From a virus (Duplodnaviria; Heunggongvirae; Uroviricota; Caudoviricetes), in the IMG/VR virus record IMGVR_UViG_2671180864_000013: a stretch of DNA of 10,024 nucleotides. One strand, given 5' to 3'. A program made the translations under genes and the position numbers. The notes below the pieces were generated by a model, which was not told the DNA's origin, made no database searches, and worked only from the letters and a program-made list of their open reading frames with translations. This document shows, piece by piece, positions 1,101 through 10,024 of this stretch (the stretch's first letter is position 1; every line of letters begins with the position of its first letter).

Positions 1101-1180
1101 TTCCGCGCCGACCCGCCCCGTGGACAGGCCCCCCCCACCAGGAGGACCCGCAAAAAAGGCGGCTGCTGCCGCCTTGTTCT
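1101..1180. repeat. Copy A of an ~80-bp repeat (C-rich core 1112-1144 plus terminator hairpin)
   Basis: Aligns in register with 3631-3710; the 33-bp core cccgccccgtggacaggccNcccccaccaggag matches 32/33. Confidence 0.7.
1151..1175 (-). terminator. Intrinsic terminator ending the capsid operon
   Basis: Minus-strand RNA reads AAGGCGGC-AGCA-GCCGCCUU followed by UUUUG, starting a few bases after the capsid stop at 1180. Confidence 0.6.
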
Positions 1181-3060
1181 CATGAAGAAATCGCTCTGAC
1201 CATTCCGCGATAATCCAGAGCAGCAACGCCAGCATCAATGCGGACCTTCCAGGCCACACCGTCAACAATAAAGCCCTCCTGCTGCTCAAGGTAAGGCTCG
1301 TCATTACCGTCAAGATAAGCCACCTCAATTGTGTCCGTTCCCTGTGCTGAAAGCATGTACCATTGCTTATCACTGACTTCATCAAGGCGGGGATCGACAA
1401 TAATATCCAGTTGTTTGTGGTACGGGTTATATGAACCACTGTTTGTATCGGCACCGAAAGGCGTGGTTGAGTTAACCATTTGCAACGCTCTGTCTTCCAG
1501 AGCCGCAGGAACAAGAAGGAATTTTGGCACAATATTCAGCACCTCACCGTTTTCATCCCTCTGTGTGCGCATTGCACGGCGTGCAATGCCAAGCCCTGTA
1601 GTGCTGACTCCGTTATCAATATCATTTCCGTGTTTTTTGCTGAACAGCGGTATACCGTCAGAAAGCTTTGTGTTTCCTGTCAGCACCAGATGAACCAGAT
1701 TACCCACCGTTCTGGCGGCTGCTCGCCCCATTGCCTGTGGGATAACTGTTAACTGATTCAGGTCATCGTTAATAATCGCCTGTCGGGTAATGCTGAAAAT
1801 ATTTCCGTAAGTTGCCAGCGCGATTGGTTCGCCACGGTCACTGGTGGTGATGTATTTATATTCCGCGCCTTCCGGCACTTTGTTTAATGTAGAGAAGCCA
1901 TTCAGGCCAACACGACGTGCCTCATGGAAGTTTGACAATGAACCTTTTTTCGTCCACTGGCGGAACGTTTCGCCGCTGTGTTCCCATCCGGCAAGCACGG
2001 ATTTTTCAGCACCACCAGCAAGGATATAAGTAAAATCGCTGCTGCTGTGGGTGAATGCCGCGTTTACTATCTGCGAGCGTGTGCTGTAGCTGCCTGTGCT
2101 TATGCCGCGATGGGTTAATGATGCCTGTGCCATATCGAAAAGGCTCATCATGGCGTAAGGGTTGCCGCGTTCTGCCTGTTCATGTCCCAGACGCGCATTA
2201 AGCCCCTGACGCATTGCATCGCCGGTTATGTTGCCGTTATCCGTGTACGCGTAGTAAAGATTTGCGGGGGTGGTTTTGTTTGTCGGTGTCGATTCTTTAC
2301 CCATAGTGAGTAAAAGGCGTTCGCGTGCATCCTCAACGCTACAGCCTGAATCAGCAAGACAACTTATAGCCAGGTCGTTATATCTTCCATTGAACGTGCC
2401 AAACAATTCACGTATCCCGTTGAGTCGTTCCTGTTCTCCGCTGCCAGTTTTCTGGCTGATCATGCTTTTAATATTTTCCGGCATATTCGAAAAATCTCCG
2501 ATTCGTTTTGATTCAATTCTGGCCATTGCTGTAATCGCGGGTATAACCTCATCTGCGAAGCCATTAGCCTTACACTCATTGCCATCCATCCAGGTTTCCG
2601 CCTCCATCATGGCGGTGATTTCCTGTTTGCTCCTGCCCGTTCTTCCGGCGTAGGTTTCCGCCATCGTGTCGCCCAGCTTGTCCATCAGGTCAGCAAAGCG
2701 GCGAACGTCGCCCGACACTCCGGCAGTAACACCACGGGGGGCATGTATCATCATCATCGCGTTTTCAGGCATAACGATGTGATCGCCACACATGGCAATA
2801 AACGAGGCCATAGAAGCCGCCATGCCTTCAATGTGTACAATTTTCTTTGCCGGATGATTTTTCAGGGCGTTATAGATAGCCAGCCCTTCAAAGATGTCGC
2901 CACCAGGTGAATGGATGCGAAGATGGATTTCAGGCACATTACCGCACGCGTTGATCTCGTCAGTAAGTGCCGATGCTTTTACACCGTACCCGCCGATCTC
3001 GTCATAAATGCGTACATGTACAACATCAGCCATAGCCTTAATGGAAAACCATGTTTTCAT
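1180..3060 (-). CDS. Fused prohead protease (ClpP / S14-like) and HK97-fold major capsid protein, 626 aa
   Basis: N-terminal ~180 aa carry ClpP-like motifs (IHSPGGDIFEGLAIYNAL ... GMAASMASFIAMCGDHIVMPENAMMMIHAP). The C-terminal ~430 aa resemble HK97-type major capsid proteins. AGGAG RBS 8 nt upstream of the ATG at 3058-3060. Confidence 0.8.
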   Translation of the reverse strand: MKTWFSIKAMADVVHVRIYDEIGGYGVKASALTDEINACGNVPEIHLRIHSPGGDIFEGLAIYNALKNHPAKKIVHIEGMAASMASFIAMCGDHIVMPENAMMMIHAPRGVTAGVSGDVRRFADLMDKLGDTMAETYAGRTGRSKQEITAMMEAETWMDGNECKANGFADEVIPAITAMARIESKRIGDFSNMPENIKSMISQKTGSGEQERLNGIRELFGTFNGRYNDLAISCLADSGCSVEDARERLLLTMGKESTPTNKTTPANLYYAYTDNGNITGDAMRQGLNARLGHEQAERGNPYAMMSLFDMAQASLTHRGISTGSYSTRSQIVNAAFTHSSSDFTYILAGGAEKSVLAGWEHSGETFRQWTKKGSLSNFHEARRVGLNGFSTLNKVPEGAEYKYITTSDRGEPIALATYGNIFSITRQAIINDDLNQLTVIPQAMGRAAARTVGNLVHLVLTGNTKLSDGIPLFSKKHGNDIDNGVSTTGLGIARRAMRTQRDENGEVLNIVPKFLLVPAALEDRALQMVNSTTPFGADTNSGSYNPYHKQLDIIVDPRLDEVSDKQWYMLSAQGTDTIEVAYLDGNDEPYLEQQEGFIVDGVAWKVRIDAGVAALDYRGMVRAISS

Positions 3061-3251
3061 AGCCAGGCTCCTAACGTTGCCCTGTACCAGTATTCAACCG
3101 CGCTTCTCGCAATCTGCCCTTTCGTGGGTACTGGCATTCCAGGGTGATGACTTTTAATGAACTGCTGATAGCGTTCGAGCTTCTCCATAGTTCCGGCGTC
3201 TATGTGCACTGTTGCACTTTTATCCGGTTTTCTGCTGTTGTTCTCTGGCAT
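3057..3251 (-). CDS. Small protein (64 aa), possible ribbon-helix-helix-like, translationally coupled to the capsid gene
   Basis: Start taken at the Met with a GGAGG RBS 7 nt upstream (ATG at 3249-3251); the track ORF extends to 3284 without an RBS. ATGA overlap with the capsid start. The beta-strand/helix pattern (ATVHIDAGTMEKLERY) is weakly RHH-like. Confidence 0.5.
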   Translation of the reverse strand: MPENNSRKPDKSATVHIDAGTMEKLERYQQFIKSHHPGMPVPTKGQIARSAVEYWYRATLGAWL

Positions 3252-3324
3252 AAGTCTGCCTCCGTTATGATTAACGGGCATCATTATTGATCGATAAAAC
3301 TGGTAAATAAATCATTTTCTATCT

Positions 3325-3354
3325 AAAAATCAGATTATGTGTTTTCTGATTTTT
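3325..3354. promoter_or_regulatory. Perfect 10-bp inverted repeat AAAAATCAGA-N10-TCTGATTTTT upstream of the capsid operon
   Basis: Read directly; lies 70-100 bp upstream of the 64-aa ORF start. Candidate operator or leader hairpin. Confidence 0.35.
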
Positions 3355-3447
3355 GTCATACCAGCAAAAGAATTGACTAATTATTGCCACGCCAGCACAA
3401 TTAAGACTCATCATTTCGGTAGTGGCAGTATCCTTTGTCGCTGACAA

Positions 3448-3497
3448 AGCGCCTCCGGTGGCACCATCGGGGCGCTTTTTTTTGCGCCTGTTTTTTG
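3448..3497 (+). terminator. Plus-strand intrinsic terminator-like structure with two alternative hairpins, each followed by a T-run
   Basis: AGCGCC(3448-3453)...GGCGCT(3471-3476) followed by T7, then GGCGC / GCGCC(3484-3488) followed by T6. No plus-strand CDS lies upstream. Confidence 0.4.
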
Positions 3498-3630
3498 TAA
3501 ATGCTTTCGGGAACGTTCCGGCGTCGAACAAAAAACAACCTAATTCGACACTAAAAATTTTTATTTTGCCATATATCAATAACTTAAACTGGTGGTGATG
3601 GTGACATAAAAATCAAAAAATACGCCTTTT

Positions 3631-3710
3631 TCCGCGAACCGCCCGCCCCGTGGACAGGCCACCCCCACCAGGAGTACCTACAAAAAAGCCGGATTGCTCC
3701 GGCTTCTGTC
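3631..3710. repeat. Copy B of the ~80-bp repeat (core 3642-3674 plus terminator hairpin)
   Basis: See copy A; about 80% identity over 80 bp, with a near-identical 33-bp core. Confidence 0.7.
3681..3705 (-). terminator. Intrinsic terminator ending the SSB operon
   Basis: Minus-strand RNA reads AAGCCGGA-GCAA-UCCGGCUU followed by UUUUG, about 15 nt after the SSB stop. Confidence 0.65.
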
Positions 3711-3719
3711 ACTCGTTGC

Positions 3720-4142
3720 TTAAAACGGTATGTTATCCCCGTACGGATCATCATTCCCCGCCTGTTGTTTGGCCCTGTTCAGTGCATCAGTGGCCTGCCC
3801 CTGTTGGCCTTTTTTACCGCCCGGTCGCGCCGTTCTGGCACTGATTACACTGTCTGCGATAACCTGCCAGCCCTGCCGCGTTTCTCCGTTCTGGCCTGTC
3901 CACTGGCTTACCTGCATGTTACCCGCCACGCTCACCAGCTCGCCTTTCTGGTGCTTTGCCAGTGCGTCAGCCTGTCTGCCAAACGCCAGGACGGATAACC
4001 ATATCGTCGCCGTTCCGTCATCTGCCTGGCTGCACGGCAGGGGAACCGCCATACTCGCCATCGTCATTTGCGTACCCTTGCTGGTGGTCTTTAACTGCGG
4101 GTCAGCCACCAGCCGCCCGTAAGCCGCTATCTGTGCTGTCAT
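3720..4142 (-). CDS. ssb: Single-stranded DNA-binding protein (SSB), 140 aa
   Basis: OB-fold region parallels E. coli SSB by eye (GRLVADPQL ... WLSVLAFGRQADALAKHQKGELVSVAGNMQVSQWTGQNGETRQGWQV), with a Gly/Gln-rich linker and an acidic C-terminal tail ending DDPYGDNIPF (compare DDDIPF). Confidence 0.8.
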   Translation of the reverse strand: MTAQIAAYGRLVADPQLKTTSKGTQMTMASMAVPLPCSQADDGTATIWLSVLAFGRQADALAKHQKGELVSVAGNMQVSQWTGQNGETRQGWQVIADSVISARTARPGGKKGQQGQATDALNRAKQQAGNDDPYGDNIPF

Positions 4143-4429: not shown

Positions 4430-4657
4430 CTTCACCTGTTCACCTTTTGCAATTTTCCCTTTTTATTCATGATGTTAATGGGTTAACAGTTTCACAAAAA
4501 CTATTCACCAACTGTTCACCACTGTTCACCCTTAAAGCTCAATAAAGAATCAAAAAGGTGAACAGTGAATAGTTTGGTGAACAGTTCATAAATAACTGTT
4601 CACCCTATAATATACTGATATAAAAGACATTTATTGCAGGGTGAACAGTGGTGAACA
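4430..4657. repeat. Replication origin candidate: eight perfect TGTTCACC / GGTGAACA octamers plus variants, with AT-rich tracts
   Basis: Forward TGTTCACC at 4437, 4513, 4523, 4597; reverse GGTGAACA at 4557, 4576, 4640, 4650; variants at 4430-4436 and 4502-4509. Two tandem pairs have 10-bp spacing. Sits immediately 3' of the primase gene. Confidence 0.7.
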
Positions 4658-4698
4658 GTTATTCCATAAGTTTAATTTTTTCCATCGTCATTTGTGAC

Positions 4699-6489
4699 CT
4701 ATGCACATGATGGCATCCAGTCTTCTGAATCCTCTGTCAGGGTCACATTTGAACGCAAACCGTGCTTCGTTTTCCGTTTCATATACTCCCTGCCATATTC
4801 CGCCATTGCCCCCGGCATATCTTTACCGAAGCGCGTCAGTGTTACAGGTTTACCGAATCCGTGTGCCCTCATATATGCCAGATAGGCGTGATAAAGATAC
4901 CTGCGCGGACTGAACGGAATAATTTCGGCATTACCCACTAACAGACCATCACACATTACCGACGACATGAGATAGCCGCAGAAGTCCACCAGCGAATCGC
5001 CCTCGCGTTTTATCACCAGAGCTTCTTCTGATTTCTGCTGCTCATACAGCAGGCGTTTAGCTTCGTCCTGGTCAGAAAAACGAGTAAGCAGGTGGCGAAT
5101 CACAACCGCCAGCTCTCCTTCTATTTTTTCTGCCAGCATGGGGTCGCGTTCGTTCTCCGGTACAACTTCCGAAAAATTGAATATCACCCGACGACGTGAG
5201 ATCCCCCCGCTGCGGTCACTGAATGACATGGCGTTATTGTTAACCGCCAGCACTACTGCCGGAATACGCGTTGAGTAGGGGGCTTTGTGTTTCGGGTCAA
5301 TTGCCACCTTGTCACCGCCTGTAATGGCCTTAATCCCTGCCCCATCACCAGCGTAGCGGGTCATATCCGGCATGATAATCAGCGAAAAGCCAACCACTAA
5401 CGCGCGTTCCCTTGCATCTTCCAGCGCCTTCATGCTTGCCGATACTGTGTTGGCCTTACCCGCCAGCATGGTGCAAATCTCCGCCATCACGCTTTTACCA
5501 CTTCCCCCTGGACCTGTTACCTCAATGAATAACTGCCAGTCGTACCGGTTCGCCAGCACCATGAATAATACAGCCAGTACGCGATCCGCCTTGCGGTCAT
5601 TCTCAGCCACCGAACGGCGTAACCACTTCCAGAAATTCGGCGCATGTGTTGCCAGCGTTTCCCCCTCTGCTGGTGGGCTGAAAGGTAATTCACTGGCAAT
5701 TAACAACCAGTCGTTTTTGTTATGCTCCCGAAAATTACCTGTTCTGGTATCAAATACCCCGTTACTGAATCCAATCAGGTTACGGGCTGTATTCCCCATT
5801 ACAGGCAAACTTAACTTCATGGTATCGACCGCCGATTTAATGGCGTTCTGCGAATAGCTGATCTCCGCATCAATGAAAATCTGTGCCATAGCTCGCTGTA
5901 ATTCTTTATCCTGTACTGGCTCCCATACAACGCCGTTGTAATGGTGAACAGTGTCAGAGTCAGCATGAATCGCCAGTTCACCGCCATAATGTGCCAGGAG
6001 AACTTCGCCGCGTTGACTTGCTCCCATCTGGTTAAGCGCCAGTGATGAAGCGTTATCGTCTTTTACCCGCTCTTTTTTCTTTACAGGCAGTTCAACTACC
6101 TTTTTCTTTTCCGCCTGCTCTGCCCGTTCACGTTCCAGATATTCGCGCCAGTTCTCCCGTTTCTGGCTGTGCATTCCTTCAGGGTAATAATCAGCATCCC
6201 TGACACCTGCCACTGCCAGTTTCTGCCCGATGGTATTAACAAGCCCCGGACGCAATAACCCCGCCTGATAGAGACGCACGCGATAGCGTCCGTCCGGTAC
6301 GATTTGCAGGTTGTCCAGTTCGGCAAGTTGTTGCTCTCCAAGCCAGACAGGTGGCACGTTATCGCCAGCCAGTCGCCCGTCCTGTTCCTGCCACTGTTTC
6401 GCATGTGCCCACGCATCACTACCCGCAAAAATGATGACTTCCGTCATTTTGTCACGCGGCTGGTGTTTTAAATTTGGCGCTTTTTTCAT
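4699..6489 (-). CDS. Replication protein: primase / SF3 helicase (P4 alpha-like, D5-type NTPase), 596 aa
   Basis: Walker A motif GPGGSGKS inside a P4-family NTPase-like region. Start taken at the ATG at 6487-6489 (GGAGAG RBS; ATGA overlap with the upstream ORF stop) rather than the GTG at 6504. Iteron origin lies directly downstream. Confidence 0.85.
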   Translation of the reverse strand: MKKAPNLKHQPRDKMTEVIIFAGSDAWAHAKQWQEQDGRLAGDNVPPVWLGEQQLAELDNLQIVPDGRYRVRLYQAGLLRPGLVNTIGQKLAVAGVRDADYYPEGMHSQKRENWREYLERERAEQAEKKKVVELPVKKKERVKDDNASSLALNQMGASQRGEVLLAHYGGELAIHADSDTVHHYNGVVWEPVQDKELQRAMAQIFIDAEISYSQNAIKSAVDTMKLSLPVMGNTARNLIGFSNGVFDTRTGNFREHNKNDWLLIASELPFSPPAEGETLATHAPNFWKWLRRSVAENDRKADRVLAVLFMVLANRYDWQLFIEVTGPGGSGKSVMAEICTMLAGKANTVSASMKALEDARERALVVGFSLIIMPDMTRYAGDGAGIKAITGGDKVAIDPKHKAPYSTRIPAVVLAVNNNAMSFSDRSGGISRRRVIFNFSEVVPENERDPMLAEKIEGELAVVIRHLLTRFSDQDEAKRLLYEQQKSEEALVIKREGDSLVDFCGYLMSSVMCDGLLVGNAEIIPFSPRRYLYHAYLAYMRAHGFGKPVTLTRFGKDMPGAMAEYGREYMKRKTKHGLRSNVTLTEDSEDWMPSCA

Positions 6490-6785
6490 TTCTGCTCTCT
6501 CCACGCGGCAATCATGTTTTTTAGTTCCTGTAGTTTTTTATCAACATCCATACATGACACATGGTTATTTCTGGAAAGCGGGATTTCCCGACTGAATCTG
6601 CTAATAAAGATCTCCACGTTCAGCGAACTAAGAAATGAATAGCCATCACGGATAAAATACACACGGTCAAACATCAGTTCTTTTACCGTTACTCTGTTAC
6701 CGTTCTTATCCAGATAAATAGCGCCGGGGATAATTTGGGGGTGTGCATAACCGCTGGCAGTCAAGCCAGATAAATACGTTCTCAT
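6486..6785 (-). CDS. Hypothetical protein (99 aa), coupled to the primase gene
   Basis: ATG at 6783-6785; its TGA stop overlaps the primase ATG. No recognisable motif. Confidence 0.5.
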   Translation of the reverse strand: MRTYLSGLTASGYAHPQIIPGAIYLDKNGNRVTVKELMFDRVYFIRDGYSFLSSLNVEIFISRFSREIPLSRNNHVSCMDVDKKLQELKNMIAAWREQK

Positions 6786-6791
6786 GATTAT

Positions 6792-7112
6792 TTATCCCCG
6801 ATTTGAATCAGTATTCGCTTTCTTTATAGCATTTAATGCATCTGTGGCATTTTCAATGGTGCACCGTAACGAAATATCAAAATGTCCAAGCATTGCCAGT
6901 AACAAACCGATATTACCCATATCAATGCGCATGGCCTTTTCGTCATAGTCCTCATTTTCTGACGCATGCCACATCAGGCTACCAATTGACGCAACAGCCA
7001 TTGATATATTGTCAGTAGCCCCATCCGCAGCGGAATAAACCTTTTTAGCAATATCATGCTCACAGTTAAAATGCGGATTAATCAGGTACTGGTAATTTGA
7101 CATATCAGGCAT
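6792..7112 (-). CDS. Hypothetical acidic protein (106 aa)
   Basis: ATG at 7110-7112 preceded by a G-run; overlaps the upstream ORF stop by 8 nt. Asp/Glu-rich. Confidence 0.5.
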   Translation of the reverse strand: MPDMSNYQYLINPHFNCEHDIAKKVYSAADGATDNISMAVASIGSLMWHASENEDYDEKAMRIDMGNIGLLLAMLGHFDISLRCTIENATDALNAIKKANTDSNRG

Positions 7113-7308
7113 GGCACCCCCCCTGACGAATACGGGCGGCGAATACCATCACGCAGCCAGCCGGGGATTGCTGGCGTGCTTCCTGTTCGCTGCTGGCCTC
7201 AATGGTAATCACGCGCGGTTGTGCCGTGCTCAGGGCGATAAAACGCCAGATGTATTTATTCAGGTTGTACGAGTCCCGCCCTTGCGGGTGTATGGTATGA
7301 TTTCTCAT
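7105..7308 (-). CDS. Hypothetical small protein (67 aa), first gene of the leftward operon
   Basis: Start taken at the internal ATG (7306-7308) with a GAGG RBS. The track ORF begins at a TTG at 7398, only 9 bp from the operator palindrome and without a clean RBS, so that extension is less likely. Confidence 0.4.
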   Translation of the reverse strand: MRNHTIHPQGRDSYNLNKYIWRFIALSTAQPRVITIEASSEQEARQQSPAGCVMVFAARIRQGGCHA

Positions 7309-7406
7309 AGCTGCCTCGATACTCTCGTTATCGTTGGTGGTTAGACGCCCCGTATGTGTTTCCGGCACTGCGGGGCGTTGCTCTTTGTATTTCAACAATC
7401 CTTTCG

Positions 7407-7484
7407 GTGTGTTTCATGTTATGAGCGCATGAAACACACGTCAAGGCTTTTTGTATTTCTTTTTTTGTGTATACTGAAACACAC
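7407..7484. promoter_or_regulatory. Divergent promoter/operator switch
   Basis: 12-bp inverted repeat GTGTGTTTCATG (7407-7418) / CATGAAACACAC (7428-7439) with a 9-bp spacer, plus a third GAAACACAC half-site (7476-7484). Leftward sigma70-like promoter TTGACG (7444-7439)-N17-TAACAT (7421-7416) is overlapped by the palindrome. Rightward -10 TATACT (7470-7475) abuts the third half-site. Confidence 0.55.
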
Positions 7485-8156: not shown

Positions 8157-8366
8157 TTACGCTGCCTTACCTGAATTAATGCGATCCCGGCTTTTAACCC
8201 ATTCCATAACCTCGGACAGCAGCCAACCTACAGAACGCCCACCAAGATTACGGCGAGACGGAAAGCTCCCTTTTTTCTCCAGTTCGTAGCGTGTAGTGCG
8301 ACACACTCCAGTTAACTTACGACATTCATCCTCACGGATTACGCGATCTTCATTTATTTCACGCAT
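8157..8366 (-). CDS. alpA: AlpA-family (prophage CP4-57 regulatory protein-like) transcriptional regulator, 69 aa
   Basis: The segment RVIREDECRKLTGVCRTTRYELEKKGSFPSRRNLGGRSVGWLLSEVMEWVKSR parallels E. coli AlpA by eye. Start uncertain: ATG at 8364-8366 gives typical AlpA length but has no RBS; the GTG at 8451-8453 has an AAGAGG directly upstream and gives 98 aa. Confidence 0.75.
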   Translation of the reverse strand: MREINEDRVIREDECRKLTGVCRTTRYELEKKGSFPSRRNLGGRSVGWLLSEVMEWVKSRDRINSGKAA

Positions 8367-8785
8367 ACAAAAACCTACATAAAAATTACGTATATAAACT
8401 TTTCTCTTAGCTGTAGATATATGAGATCGGATATTACTTAGATTCTTTTTCACCTCTTAAATTAAAAACACAACCATACTAAAGGCTTTGTTCGCTAAGG
8501 TTCGTAGAAGCTCGTTAGTGTTTAAAATCGTGTCACGAGTTTTTAAGCGACGCAACAAAAAATGTCGTCATTTGGCATGTCACCTGAATTACCTCATTAA
8601 AAACAAATAGATAAACCATCAGGTGTTGGAACAATCAAGAAACAGAGAATAAGAACTCAGAAGAAGACATTTCAATTTTTTTCGATAGTTGACACATATA
8701 AAGAGAAGATATTTGCAGATATTCCCCGATATTCTAAGATCTATTCACGGCTGTAATCTCTTAAAGAAAAAACAGCCGTAATTTG

Positions 8786-10024
8786 TCAAGAATTTTGGGG
8801 GTAAATTCGCGGGGTCATAACAACGATTTTTTCATCATTGTTCTGGAGAAGCTCGAGACGGTCTACCCATAGATTAAGAGCGTCACGCTTTGCATCGAGA
8901 TAACGGGAGTGGTTATAGACGCGTTGCATTCCTGGCATCTGGTGGGCAGTAAGCTGTTCGACAATATGCGGATCCACGCCTAAATCGTTCAGCATGGTTG
9001 TAAATGTGTGCCGGATGTCGTGCAACGACCAGGGGGTTTGATTAATGCGTCTGTGTGCCGTTCTTCCGTACTCTGCTACGGATGATTGCCCTTTCAGTTC
9101 TCCAAGCAATAAGCCCGTGTGCCTGTTCTGCTCCACCAGCTTCATGACGAACGGCAAGATCGCTTCCGGTATTGGCCTGAATATTGCTACCTTCGTTTTG
9201 CTGTGTTCTTTCGGCACAGTCCAGAGCATTTCTTTAAAATCCCATTCCCGAACCTCGGAGCGTCTTAGCTCAGTGGTACGGCATCCGAAGACAATCAGAA
9301 GGCGAATTAAAGCGCTGTAGTACGGCGGGAAAATTTTTTCATCCAGTGCGCGGAGTAGCTCGCCAAGCTCCTTGTTTGTTAGCACTCGCTCGCTTATTTC
9401 TGCTTTTTTTCCCACATCACCTACGACCATATCATCAAGAACGTTACTGACGGCGTAGCGACGTTTACGGCAGTACTTAAGCGCCTGTTTGCATACCTGC
9501 AACAAAAAGCCGGCTGATACCGGATTACGCTTAGCAAGCTGGTCAAAACAGGCCAGCCAGTGGCGTAGCTCGCATTTATCCAGCGGCATAGCACCAATCT
9601 GGCTGATTATGTGCTTATTGATACGGCTTTTCAGTGATTCGTGGTCAGTGCGCTTTTCCTTCGCATACGACTCAAGCCAGTAAGTGAGCGCGTCCTTAAC
9701 CGTCACAGGGGCTAACGCTTCCTGCACTGTGTGATTAAGCTCATGGCGTGGATTTTTCCCCTCCGCCAGCCAGGCGCGACACTGTGCCGCTTTTTCCCTG
9801 GCTGCTTTCAGGCTCAGATCGGGATAGTTGCCCAGTCTCAGGCGTTCCGGTGATACCTGCCTGCCAGTTCCGGCCCTGTAAGTGAAATACCAGGTTAACA
9901 GGCCGCTGGTGGAATGTCTTACGCTAAGATTGCCACCGTCATTAAAAAAGGCGTTTTTTGTGGTTGGTGATCCGCTTAATTTTCGTAAAAGAGTGTCGCT
10001 AAGTCTATGAATTGCGCTGCTCAT
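8786..10024 (-). CDS. int: Tyrosine recombinase / integrase, P4-like, 412 aa
   Basis: N-terminal arm-binding-like region (FNDGGNLSVRH ... WYFTYR ... LGNYPDLSLKAAREKA) and C-terminal catalytic region with HDIRHT and downstream Tyr. The ATG is at the window edge, so a longer N-terminus cannot be excluded. Confidence 0.9.
   Translation of the reverse strand: MSSAIHRLSDTLLRKLSGSPTTKNAFFNDGGNLSVRHSTSGLLTWYFTYRAGTGRQVSPERLRLGNYPDLSLKAAREKAAQCRAWLAEGKNPRHELNHTVQEALAPVTVKDALTYWLESYAKEKRTDHESLKSRINKHIISQIGAMPLDKCELRHWLACFDQLAKRNPVSAGFLLQVCKQALKYCRKRRYAVSNVLDDMVVGDVGKKAEISERVLTNKELGELLRALDEKIFPPYYSALIRLLIVFGCRTTELRRSEVREWDFKEMLWTVPKEHSKTKVAIFRPIPEAILPFVMKLVEQNRHTGLLLGELKGQSSVAEYGRTAHRRINQTPWSLHDIRHTFTTMLNDLGVDPHIVEQLTAHQMPGMQRVYNHSRYLDAKRDALNLWVDRLELLQNNDEKIVVMTPRIYPQNS

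Follow-up and report, generated by a model that had tools for sequence, protein, structure and literature searches.

The window, meaning here the whole 10,024-nt stretch of DNA analysed, is a phage-inducible chromosomal island (PICI) of the Gram-negative, EcCICFT073-like type, also published as the helper-embedded PICI or HE-PICI (PMC6092414, PMC10111431). Its Pfam domains reveal an integrase, AlpA, a D5-type primase and a capsid homolog, and it has two cos-like repeats matching the termini of lambdoid phages. Such islands are further characterised by a size of about 10-12 kb and a location at a tRNA or a prophage late gene. The E. coli homologs of the island are approximately 87% identical to it and occur in two settings in keeping with this type, namely at tRNA-Pro beside yejM and, in O157:H7, within the terL gene of a lambdoid prophage. 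The sizeable genes of the window are all on the minus strand, and the features of the island are as follows:

8786-10024, minus strand, integrase
8157-8453, minus strand, AlpA
7105-7398, minus strand, repressor-like protein
between the repressor-like gene and the primase in this order, minus strand, DUF4222 gene
4699-6504, minus strand, D5-type primase
3720-4142, minus strand, SSB
3527-3705, minus strand, cos1, with a cosN-like ACGGGGCGGGCGGTTCGCGG and the SSB terminator hairpin (3686-3705) at its upstream end
3057-3251, minus strand, 64-aa protein encoded by the first gene of the capsid operon (phrog_4934, function unknown, no Pfam match)
1180-3060, minus strand, ClpP-protease/major-capsid fusion
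996-1175, cos2, a direct copy of cos1

The direct repeats at 996-1175 and 3527-3705, each of about 180 nt and with 77-83% identity in blocks (D1, D3, D4, D8), are on sequence comparison the two cos sites described experimentally for EcCICFT073 (PMC6092414). Each copy follows a terminator, one that of the capsid gene and the other that of SSB. Both carry a cosN-like ACGGGGCGGG(C/T)GG, while an IHF-like ATCAATAACTTA is present in cos1. The repeat matches the genome termini of lambdoid phages, for example mEp460, as well as a site upstream of terS in the Sakai prophage Sp15. More than 2,000 E. coli genomes share 3526-3686 with the window, and no more than this region. Elsewhere on the island, a dense array of direct and inverted GGTGAACAGT iterons (families D2, D19, I1, I9, I12, I13, I21) lies at 4497-4673, directly downstream of the primase gene; this array is the probable replication origin. 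The top sigma-70-like site of the window (TTGACG-17-TAACAT, 7444-7416, minus strand) sits inside a 26-nt inverted repeat (I5, 81% complementary, 7393-7453) upstream of the gene at 7105-7398, and this region before the repressor-like gene is likely an early promoter with its operator. In some assemblies of the exact lineage of the window (L278, GCA_000815825.1; L279, GCA_002442535.1) the primase is split by an insertion sequence of the IS3 family (HTH_Tnp_1 and rve domains), and these copies of the island are probably immobile.

The intergenic region between SSB and the 64-aa gene is 468 nt long (3252-3719). In minus-strand order it holds the SSB terminator (3705-3686), cos1, a candidate small transcription unit on the opposite strand, a control region, GGAGG and the ATG at 3251. 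The candidate unit, placed between cos1 (3527-3705) and the capsid-operon promoter region (3252-3355), has the following parts:

3373-3378, plus strand, -35 hexamer TTGACT (consensus scan)
3396-3401, plus strand, -10 hexamer CACAAT, following the -35 after a 17-bp spacer; CAGTAT or CAATAT in homologs
3407-3483, plus strand, predicted small RNA of about 75 nt, its start placed some 6-8 nt after the -10 and its 3′ end within T8
3421-3442, plus strand, internal stem-loop SL1, AGUGGCAG/UUGUCGCU with a 6-nt loop (folding)
3446-3483, plus strand, intrinsic terminator made up of a GC-rich 14-pair hairpin (3446-3478) and T8 (3476-3483)
3470-3489, plus strand, second and weaker hairpin GGGCGC-T8-GCGCCT, followed by GTTTTTTG with a T6 run to 3497 (consensus scan)
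3510-3519, no strand, palindrome GGAACGTTCC, within a well-conserved segment that separates the terminator from cos1

Homologs for comparison were drawn from complete E. coli genomes, from IMG/VR by means of the 64-aa protein, from searches with an 18-mer of the capsid control region, and from metagenomes. The unit occurs in three sequence lineages, these being that of the window, the common E. coli form and an L080/L277-like form, which are 20-25% apart across the unit.

The initial annotation of this DNA had proposed a plus-strand promoter followed by two alternative GC hairpins, each with a T-run. The coordinates of both hexamers and the 17-bp spacer are confirmed in the sequence. With 9 of 12 consensus matches the site was picked up by the consensus scan, which found eight promoter-like sites in the window with 13.5 expected from shuffles, so that a consensus match alone proves nothing. 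A rough sigma-70 position-weight matrix, with base frequencies after the Hawley-McClure compilations, was built for this reason. In this matrix TTGACT-17-CACAAT ranks second out of 59,964 site, spacer and strand combinations in the window, the first place being taken by the site before the repressor-like early gene, a sensible positive control. The homologous promoter is the best intergenic sigma-70-like site in both other lineages (rank 13 of 111,174 in L001 and 3-6 of 38,532 in L080). The TTGAC of the -35 is invariant in all of the variants (at least 29, from three lineages), and no lineage departs from A2 and T6 of the -10 or from the spacer length, even though the spacer sequence diverges, the spacer and flanks differing by 31-44% between lineages. 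The -10 itself is weak, with 3-4 of 6 matches and position 1 occupied by C; the version of the E. coli lineage has just 3 of 6 and falls below the threshold of the consensus scan. A second plus-strand promoter-like site, TTGATC-17-AATCAT at 3287, is also conserved.

Less than 50 nt separate the candidate promoter from a same-strand terminator that ranks among the strongest, its hairpin starting 47 nt after the -10. The two hairpins of the initial annotation were found again by scanning. The first was located by the consensus scan at 3453-3472 (CTCCGGTG-GCAC-CATCGGGG, then CGCTTTTTTT), and on folding it spans 3446-3478 with 14 pairs, one bulged C and two G.U pairs. Since both hairpins use GGCGC, they are mutually exclusive. 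The hairpin of the terminator and a T6-T9 run were found in all homologs, and the second hairpin is likewise conserved, in L080 by means of a G.U pair. For the plus-strand RNA 3407-3482 the minimum free energy is -32.3 kcal/mol (z = -4.7), and none of 200 shuffles folds as well; the corresponding z values are -5.1 for the E. coli version and -3.5 for that of L080. The association of promoter and hairpin is thus real and above chance.

The opposite strand gives a different picture. The minus-strand RNA 3400-3530 has no significant fold (z = +0.14), and the U tail of its hairpin is only U3-4. A small hairpin with an A8 loop forms first and disrupts the base of the large one, while the G.U pairs of the SL1 and terminator stems become A.C mismatches, leaving these stems weaker or absent. 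SL1 exists on the plus strand only, as four of its eight pairs are G.U. These results bear on a further proposal in the initial annotation, that the structure could be an attenuator. On the plus strand this can be set aside, as no plus-strand gene lies downstream, the next features being cos1 and the antisense of SSB. On the minus strand, a transcript starting in or upstream of cos1 could form a leader of the capsid operon in which alternative hairpins decide whether transcription reads on. The mutually exclusive hairpins sharing GGCGC would suit such a device, and the small hairpin, forming first, would be an anti-terminator of the large one. This reading is nevertheless highly improbable, given the lack of a significant fold and the short U tail. 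Moreover, islands without the block retain the capsid operon and the same 100 nt upstream of it, and the operon therefore does not need this leader.

The absence of a plus-strand coding sequence, also claimed at the outset, is borne out. The sole plus-strand ORF at the unit is a 58-aa ORF with a GTG start (3422-3598) which is not conserved in homologs. No conserved ORF was found on either strand, frames breaking between lineages, and a coding reading was dropped on these grounds. With a predicted promoter of its own, no conserved ORF, and a Rho-independent terminator whose 14-pair hairpin is followed by T8 (T6-T9 in homologs, a U tail of at least about 6-7 being expected), the locus has two of the properties looked for in an Hfq-type sRNA gene. 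A small plus-strand transcription unit at 3373-3483 is therefore likely on sequence grounds, in agreement with the compact promoter-terminator unit first suggested, and its predicted RNA would be about 75-80 nt in length.

Conservation in related elements had been named as one test of the unit, and it was found. Besides TTGAC, the spacer length and the two -10 positions, the elements invariant in all variants are TTAAGACTC(A/G)TCAT, UCCUUUGUCG, the terminator stem and T6-T9. The sequence directly after the -10, TTAAGACTCRTCAT, is conserved, and the first ten or so transcribed bases are kept, with the predicted RNA beginning CUC(A/G)UCAU; its middle part, apart from UCCUUUGUCG, is variable. Within the intergenic region, divergence between lineages peaks in the spacer of the promoter and the first two-thirds of the RNA (0.31-0.36), the values for cos1 and the capsid control region being 0.08 and 0.10 respectively. 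Such high divergence in the RNA body would fit a variable-seed sRNA and relaxed constraint equally well. An SL1-like stem of 8 bp is present in the E. coli lineage with a different 5′ arm and in a shifted register but with the same conserved 3′ arm, and is less clear in L080. RNAalifold gave no consensus pair set for SL1, and the recurrence of an internal 8-bp stem in different registers is suggestive but falls short of consensus evidence.

Covariation analysis, also proposed at the outset, was run with RNAalifold, which supports the terminator hairpin alone, with a covariation term of -0.02. No covariation was found in the stems, the terminator pairs being invariant or changed on one side only, and this is explained by how little the terminator stem varies. 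The single pair with both sides changed sits in a weak 5′ helix. As first noted, a palindrome is present at 3510-3519, though it is not strictly conserved: homologs have GGAACGCTCC, GGAATGTTCC or GGATCGTTCC, and in several of them the symmetry is broken. The stretch around it (3484-3526) is well conserved. A patchy likeness to the 5′ half of the RNA (3424-3447) was noticed at the far end of the island (8-54; 75% over 24 nt, ...GGCAG...CGCTGACAA; repeat D15), but with so patchy an alignment it was judged to be a chance match.

Among 5,426 complete E. coli genomes, 144 (approximately 2.7%) carry the unit, which is annotated in none of them, and many STEC of serotypes O157:H7, O145, O121 and O111 are carriers. 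Examples are O145:H28 RM12581 (NZ_CP007136.1, 1006033-1006169), O121 RM8352 (NZ_CP028110.1, 4880746-4880882) and O157:H7 H6437 (NZ_CP038339.1, near 1892700). The window's own lineage is absent from these 5,426 genomes. Its 64-aa protein, however, is found with identical sequence in public assemblies numbering in the thousands, and 3,780 blocks of the public collection record it, which indicates that the lineage is very abundant in some heavily sequenced taxon. A scan of metagenomes gave four true matches, each belonging to the E. coli lineage. Six variants were used to build a covariance model, which had no match in satellites of 47 other species, nor in two other types of related island (types B and C, below), and no opposite-strand terminator was found at this position in the capsid-gene neighborhoods of those 47 species. 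The distribution of the unit is thus narrow, comprising E. coli and close relatives only.

The region between the candidate unit and the 64-aa gene has its own set of features:

3252-3355, minus strand, control region of the capsid operon, better conserved than any other part of the intergenic region
3325-3354, perfect 10-bp inverted repeat AAAAATCAGA-N10-TCTGATTTTT, its midpoint some 63 bp upstream of the operon start expected near 3276
3311-3306 and 3288-3283, minus strand, candidate core promoter TTTATT-17-AATAAT, its hexamers recurring in all island types
3261-3278, leader hairpin CCGTTA-TGAT-TAACGG, overlapping the ACGGAGG Shine-Dalgarno sequence of the 64-aa gene and conserved in type A homologs
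3251, minus strand, ATG of the 64-aa gene, preceded by GGAGG

The inverted repeat looks like an activator site, possibly for AlpA, PerC or a helper factor, and the leader hairpin may mask translation initiation. Searching with the control-region 18-mer uncovered three island architectures, in all of which the promoter has the form TTTAT(T/C)-17-AATAAT on the minus strand, with the direct repeats AGATTAAT/AGATTCAG replacing the inverted repeat in types B and C. Type A is the architecture of the window. In type B (e.g., L079, L132) unrelated sequence replaces the unit, and a minus-strand terminator, GCCGGAT-TTTA-TCCGGC with T6 (3078-3094 in L079), lies directly upstream of the control region. 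No good promoter was found upstream of this terminator. The type B terminator resembles that of SSB, and about 130 nt of unrelated conserved sequence reaches from it to cos1. Type C islands (L135, L159, L181, L186) are without cos1, the SSB terminator abutting the conserved stretch of about 100 nt, and after this stretch come the small ORF and the capsid gene.

As type C islands keep only the equivalent of 3252-3355, the capsid operon needs no more than this region, and its own promoter most likely lies inside it, downstream of the candidate RNA. With the unit absent from type C and the SSB terminator abutting the control region there, the unit is upstream of and divergent from the capsid promoter; the start of the candidate RNA is about 130 bp upstream of the inferred start of the capsid operon, in the opposite direction. 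The initial description of the RNA as antisense to the leader of the morphogenesis operon does not survive this arrangement, and the RNA would be antisense only to read-through transcripts coming from cos1 or SSB. Sister islands without the block also indicate that it behaves as a discrete, moron-like insert beside cos1, and the slot between cos1 and the capsid promoter is evidently, from the architectures compared, a site of cassette exchange. Several other type A islands (L080, L081, L276, L277) have a PerC-family regulator upstream of cos1 along with a RepA-type helicase, these replacing SSB and the D5 primase, which implies that the block formed by cos1, the sRNA-like unit and the capsid genes moves independently of the replication module.

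The same comparison speaks to the idea that the segment acts as DNA, either as an extension of cosB or as a protein-binding or bending site for packaging or replication, its RNA-like features being incidental. The segment adjoins cos1, and the neighboring 3484-3526 is well conserved. However, cos2 (996-1175) has no equivalent of the segment, the repeat stopping at 3527, and the cos regions of lambdoid phages match only 3527-3705, with no match to the segment among 50,697 phage records. The strand asymmetry of the hairpin, with its G.U pairs and T run, also points to RNA. With the block dispensable in type C and absent from cos2 and from the phage records, a role as cos extension, like that as attenuator, is very unlikely.

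Another reading, which we consider improbable, is that the same RNA of about 75 nt acts in cis in the manner of lambda oop. It would pair with minus-strand transcripts reading through the SSB terminator and cos1 or, in helper-embedded copies, with the antiterminated late transcript of the helper, and the pairing would lead to cleavage or termination before the capsid operon, leaving capsid expression to the operon's own activator-dependent promoter. By its position the RNA is perfectly complementary to any such read-through, the rest of the island is on the minus strand, and the minus-strand terminator that sister islands have at this slot suggests selection against read-through into the capsid operon. 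The size and build of the RNA are also like those of oop as known from the lambda literature. On the other hand, no decent minus-strand promoter exists upstream within cos1 (the best, TTGATA-18-TTTAGT, scores 7.1), the SSB gene already has a good terminator (3686-3705), and a conserved 5′ end joined to a variable middle would be unneeded in a purely cis-antisense RNA.

A somewhat unlikely but weightier alternative is that the locus is an insulator or terminator only, a barrier between cos1 with the replication module on one side and the capsid control region on the other, the promoter being fortuitous or weak. It would stop stray plus-strand transcription, for example from the promoter-like site at 3287, whose conservation fits this role, and might partly hinder minus-strand read-through. 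As sister islands also place a terminator in this slot, upstream of the capsid control region, selection seems to favor a barrier here. Between lineages, no other part of the intergenic region is as poorly conserved as the RNA body, neither covariation nor a predicted target was found, and the -10 of the E. coli lineage matches at just three of six positions. Against this, the polarity is wrong: both T runs (T8 and T6) belong to the plus strand, with just a short tail on the minus strand, whereas the sister islands terminate the minus strand, and the A8-loop hairpin forming first on that strand weakens the large one. Nor would a mere barrier account for a promoter that is top-ranked in its region in three lineages, with key positions and spacing kept despite the divergence of the spacer, or for conservation of the first transcribed bases.

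The best explanation of the locus, to which we give about an even chance of being correct, is an independent gene for an Hfq-type trans-acting sRNA of about 75 nt, with transcription, 5′ end, Hfq dependence and any target all being predicted. The sigma-70 promoter at 3373-3401 would start a plus-strand RNA near 3407, directed away from the capsid-operon promoter, and transcription would stop in the U run at 3476-3483, at the strong intrinsic terminator. From 5′ to 3′ the RNA would consist of a single-stranded, conserved end (CUCAUCAU...), an internal stem-loop that varies, and the terminator hairpin with its long poly-U tail, a build that would be usual for the Hfq-dependent base-pairing sRNAs of prophages and islands. 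Its main action would be in trans through the 5′ end, on mRNAs of the host, the helper phage or the island. Secondarily, the terminator would shield cos1 and the replication module from plus-strand transcription, and the RNA would be complementary to any minus-strand read-through on its way to the capsid operon.

Targets were searched for using duplex energies, the output of which was noisy and is not relied on, together with the longest complementary words. Apart from the trivial self-antisense match, no complementarity to the candidate RNA above chance was found in the island, its E. coli homologs or prophage Sp15. The start region of lamB (AUGAUGAUU) was also considered and rejected, as it offers only 7-9 bp of pairing. 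A more ambitious and rather unlikely version of the sRNA reading is that the RNA is a satellite regulator, made constitutively from the dormant island, which reprogrammes host or helper genes or gates the capsid operon as a counterpart of SviR, the lineages representing target specificities. The conserved 5′ end and the lineage-specific middle would then act, for example, near start codons complementary to AUGAUGAG.

None of the 4227 Rfam families, including the models for C4, isrK, Esr41, AgvB, AsxR and STnc100, matched the window or four related loci at gathering thresholds. At E ≤ 10 nothing real appeared either, the best being ctRNA_p42d (19.7 bits, threshold 50) and STnc130 (22.3 bits, threshold 55). 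The sequence of the candidate RNA itself was not found in the literature. Among individual sRNAs, Esr41 was ruled out as it sits in SpLE1 beside the ter genes, PasB as its probe sequence is absent from the window, and EcOnc33 and EcOnc35 (from the EcOnc table of Tree et al.) as they are located elsewhere. Four prophage regions (Sp10, Sp6, Sp4, Sp15) of Sakai, whose Hfq-CRAC data are the best among E. coli strains, were inspected and none contains the island, the terL of Sp15 being intact; the Sakai Hfq-CRAC catalog is therefore not applicable to the candidate.

Lambda oop is a 77-nt antisense RNA made from the promoter pO, and it overlaps the 3′ end of the cII coding region. Like the candidate, it is short, has its own promoter and intrinsic terminator and runs against the direction of all neighboring genes. 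The candidate differs in overlapping no gene, lying upstream of and not within the capsid operon's own transcript. The two have no sequence similarity, and lambdoid phages do not match the segment.

Lambdoid prophages carry many Hfq-bound sRNAs, and three of these, EcOnc01-03, have a conserved terminator and a variable 5′ part (PMC4104026), a pattern which the candidate shares. More generally, the Hfq sRNAs of E. coli prophages and islands (AgvB/AsxR, Esr41, EcOnc, PasA-D, DicF) resemble it in being non-coding RNAs of 50-90 nt in an intergenic moron slot, with their own promoter, a Rho-independent terminator and a long U tail. It is plausible from these shared features that the candidate is an ordinary kind of mobile-element small RNA. 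It has, however, no sequence or Rfam relationship to them, and its host element is a PICI satellite instead of a prophage.

Small regulatory RNAs of another kind, the P4 CI/P1 C4/IsrK immunity RNAs (C4 RF01695, isrK RF01394), have been reported in some Gram-negative PICIs and HE-PICIs (PMC10111431) and, like the candidate, belong to enterobacterial satellites. These map to the early or "Bro" zone, arise by processing of a leader transcript and target sites of the seqA/seqB type close by, unlike the candidate, which lies between cos1 and the capsid operon, has its own predicted promoter and terminator, and has no match to them at E ≤ 10. The nearest functional precedent, by analogy, is SviR, a trans-acting sRNA of the PLE satellite of Vibrio cholerae, which shows that satellites can regulate their own genes and those of the helper phage by means of an sRNA (bioRxiv 10.1101/2022.04.08.487710). 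It differs from the candidate in satellite family, host and sequence, and is conserved in all PLEs, whereas the candidate is found in only one architectural subtype of the E. coli PICIs.

If expressed, the candidate would be the first sRNA assigned to the EcCICFT073 family of E. coli and Shigella phage satellites, and would offer a handle on protein-free communication between islands and their host or helper; it would be a gene so far unannotated in about 3% of complete E. coli genomes. If the locus is a terminator only, it remains a boundary marker between the packaging site and the control region of the capsid operon, in a slot shown by its three alternative architectures to be a recombination hot spot. 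In either case the corrected map, with cos1, an sRNA-like unit and an activator-type capsid promoter with its inverted repeat, matters for the engineering of these islands. It is also worth mentioning for annotation that the homolog of the 64-aa protein in type B and C islands is only 40% identical and is not annotated in RefSeq, which gives an ORF on the opposite strand in its place (2856-3029 in L079).
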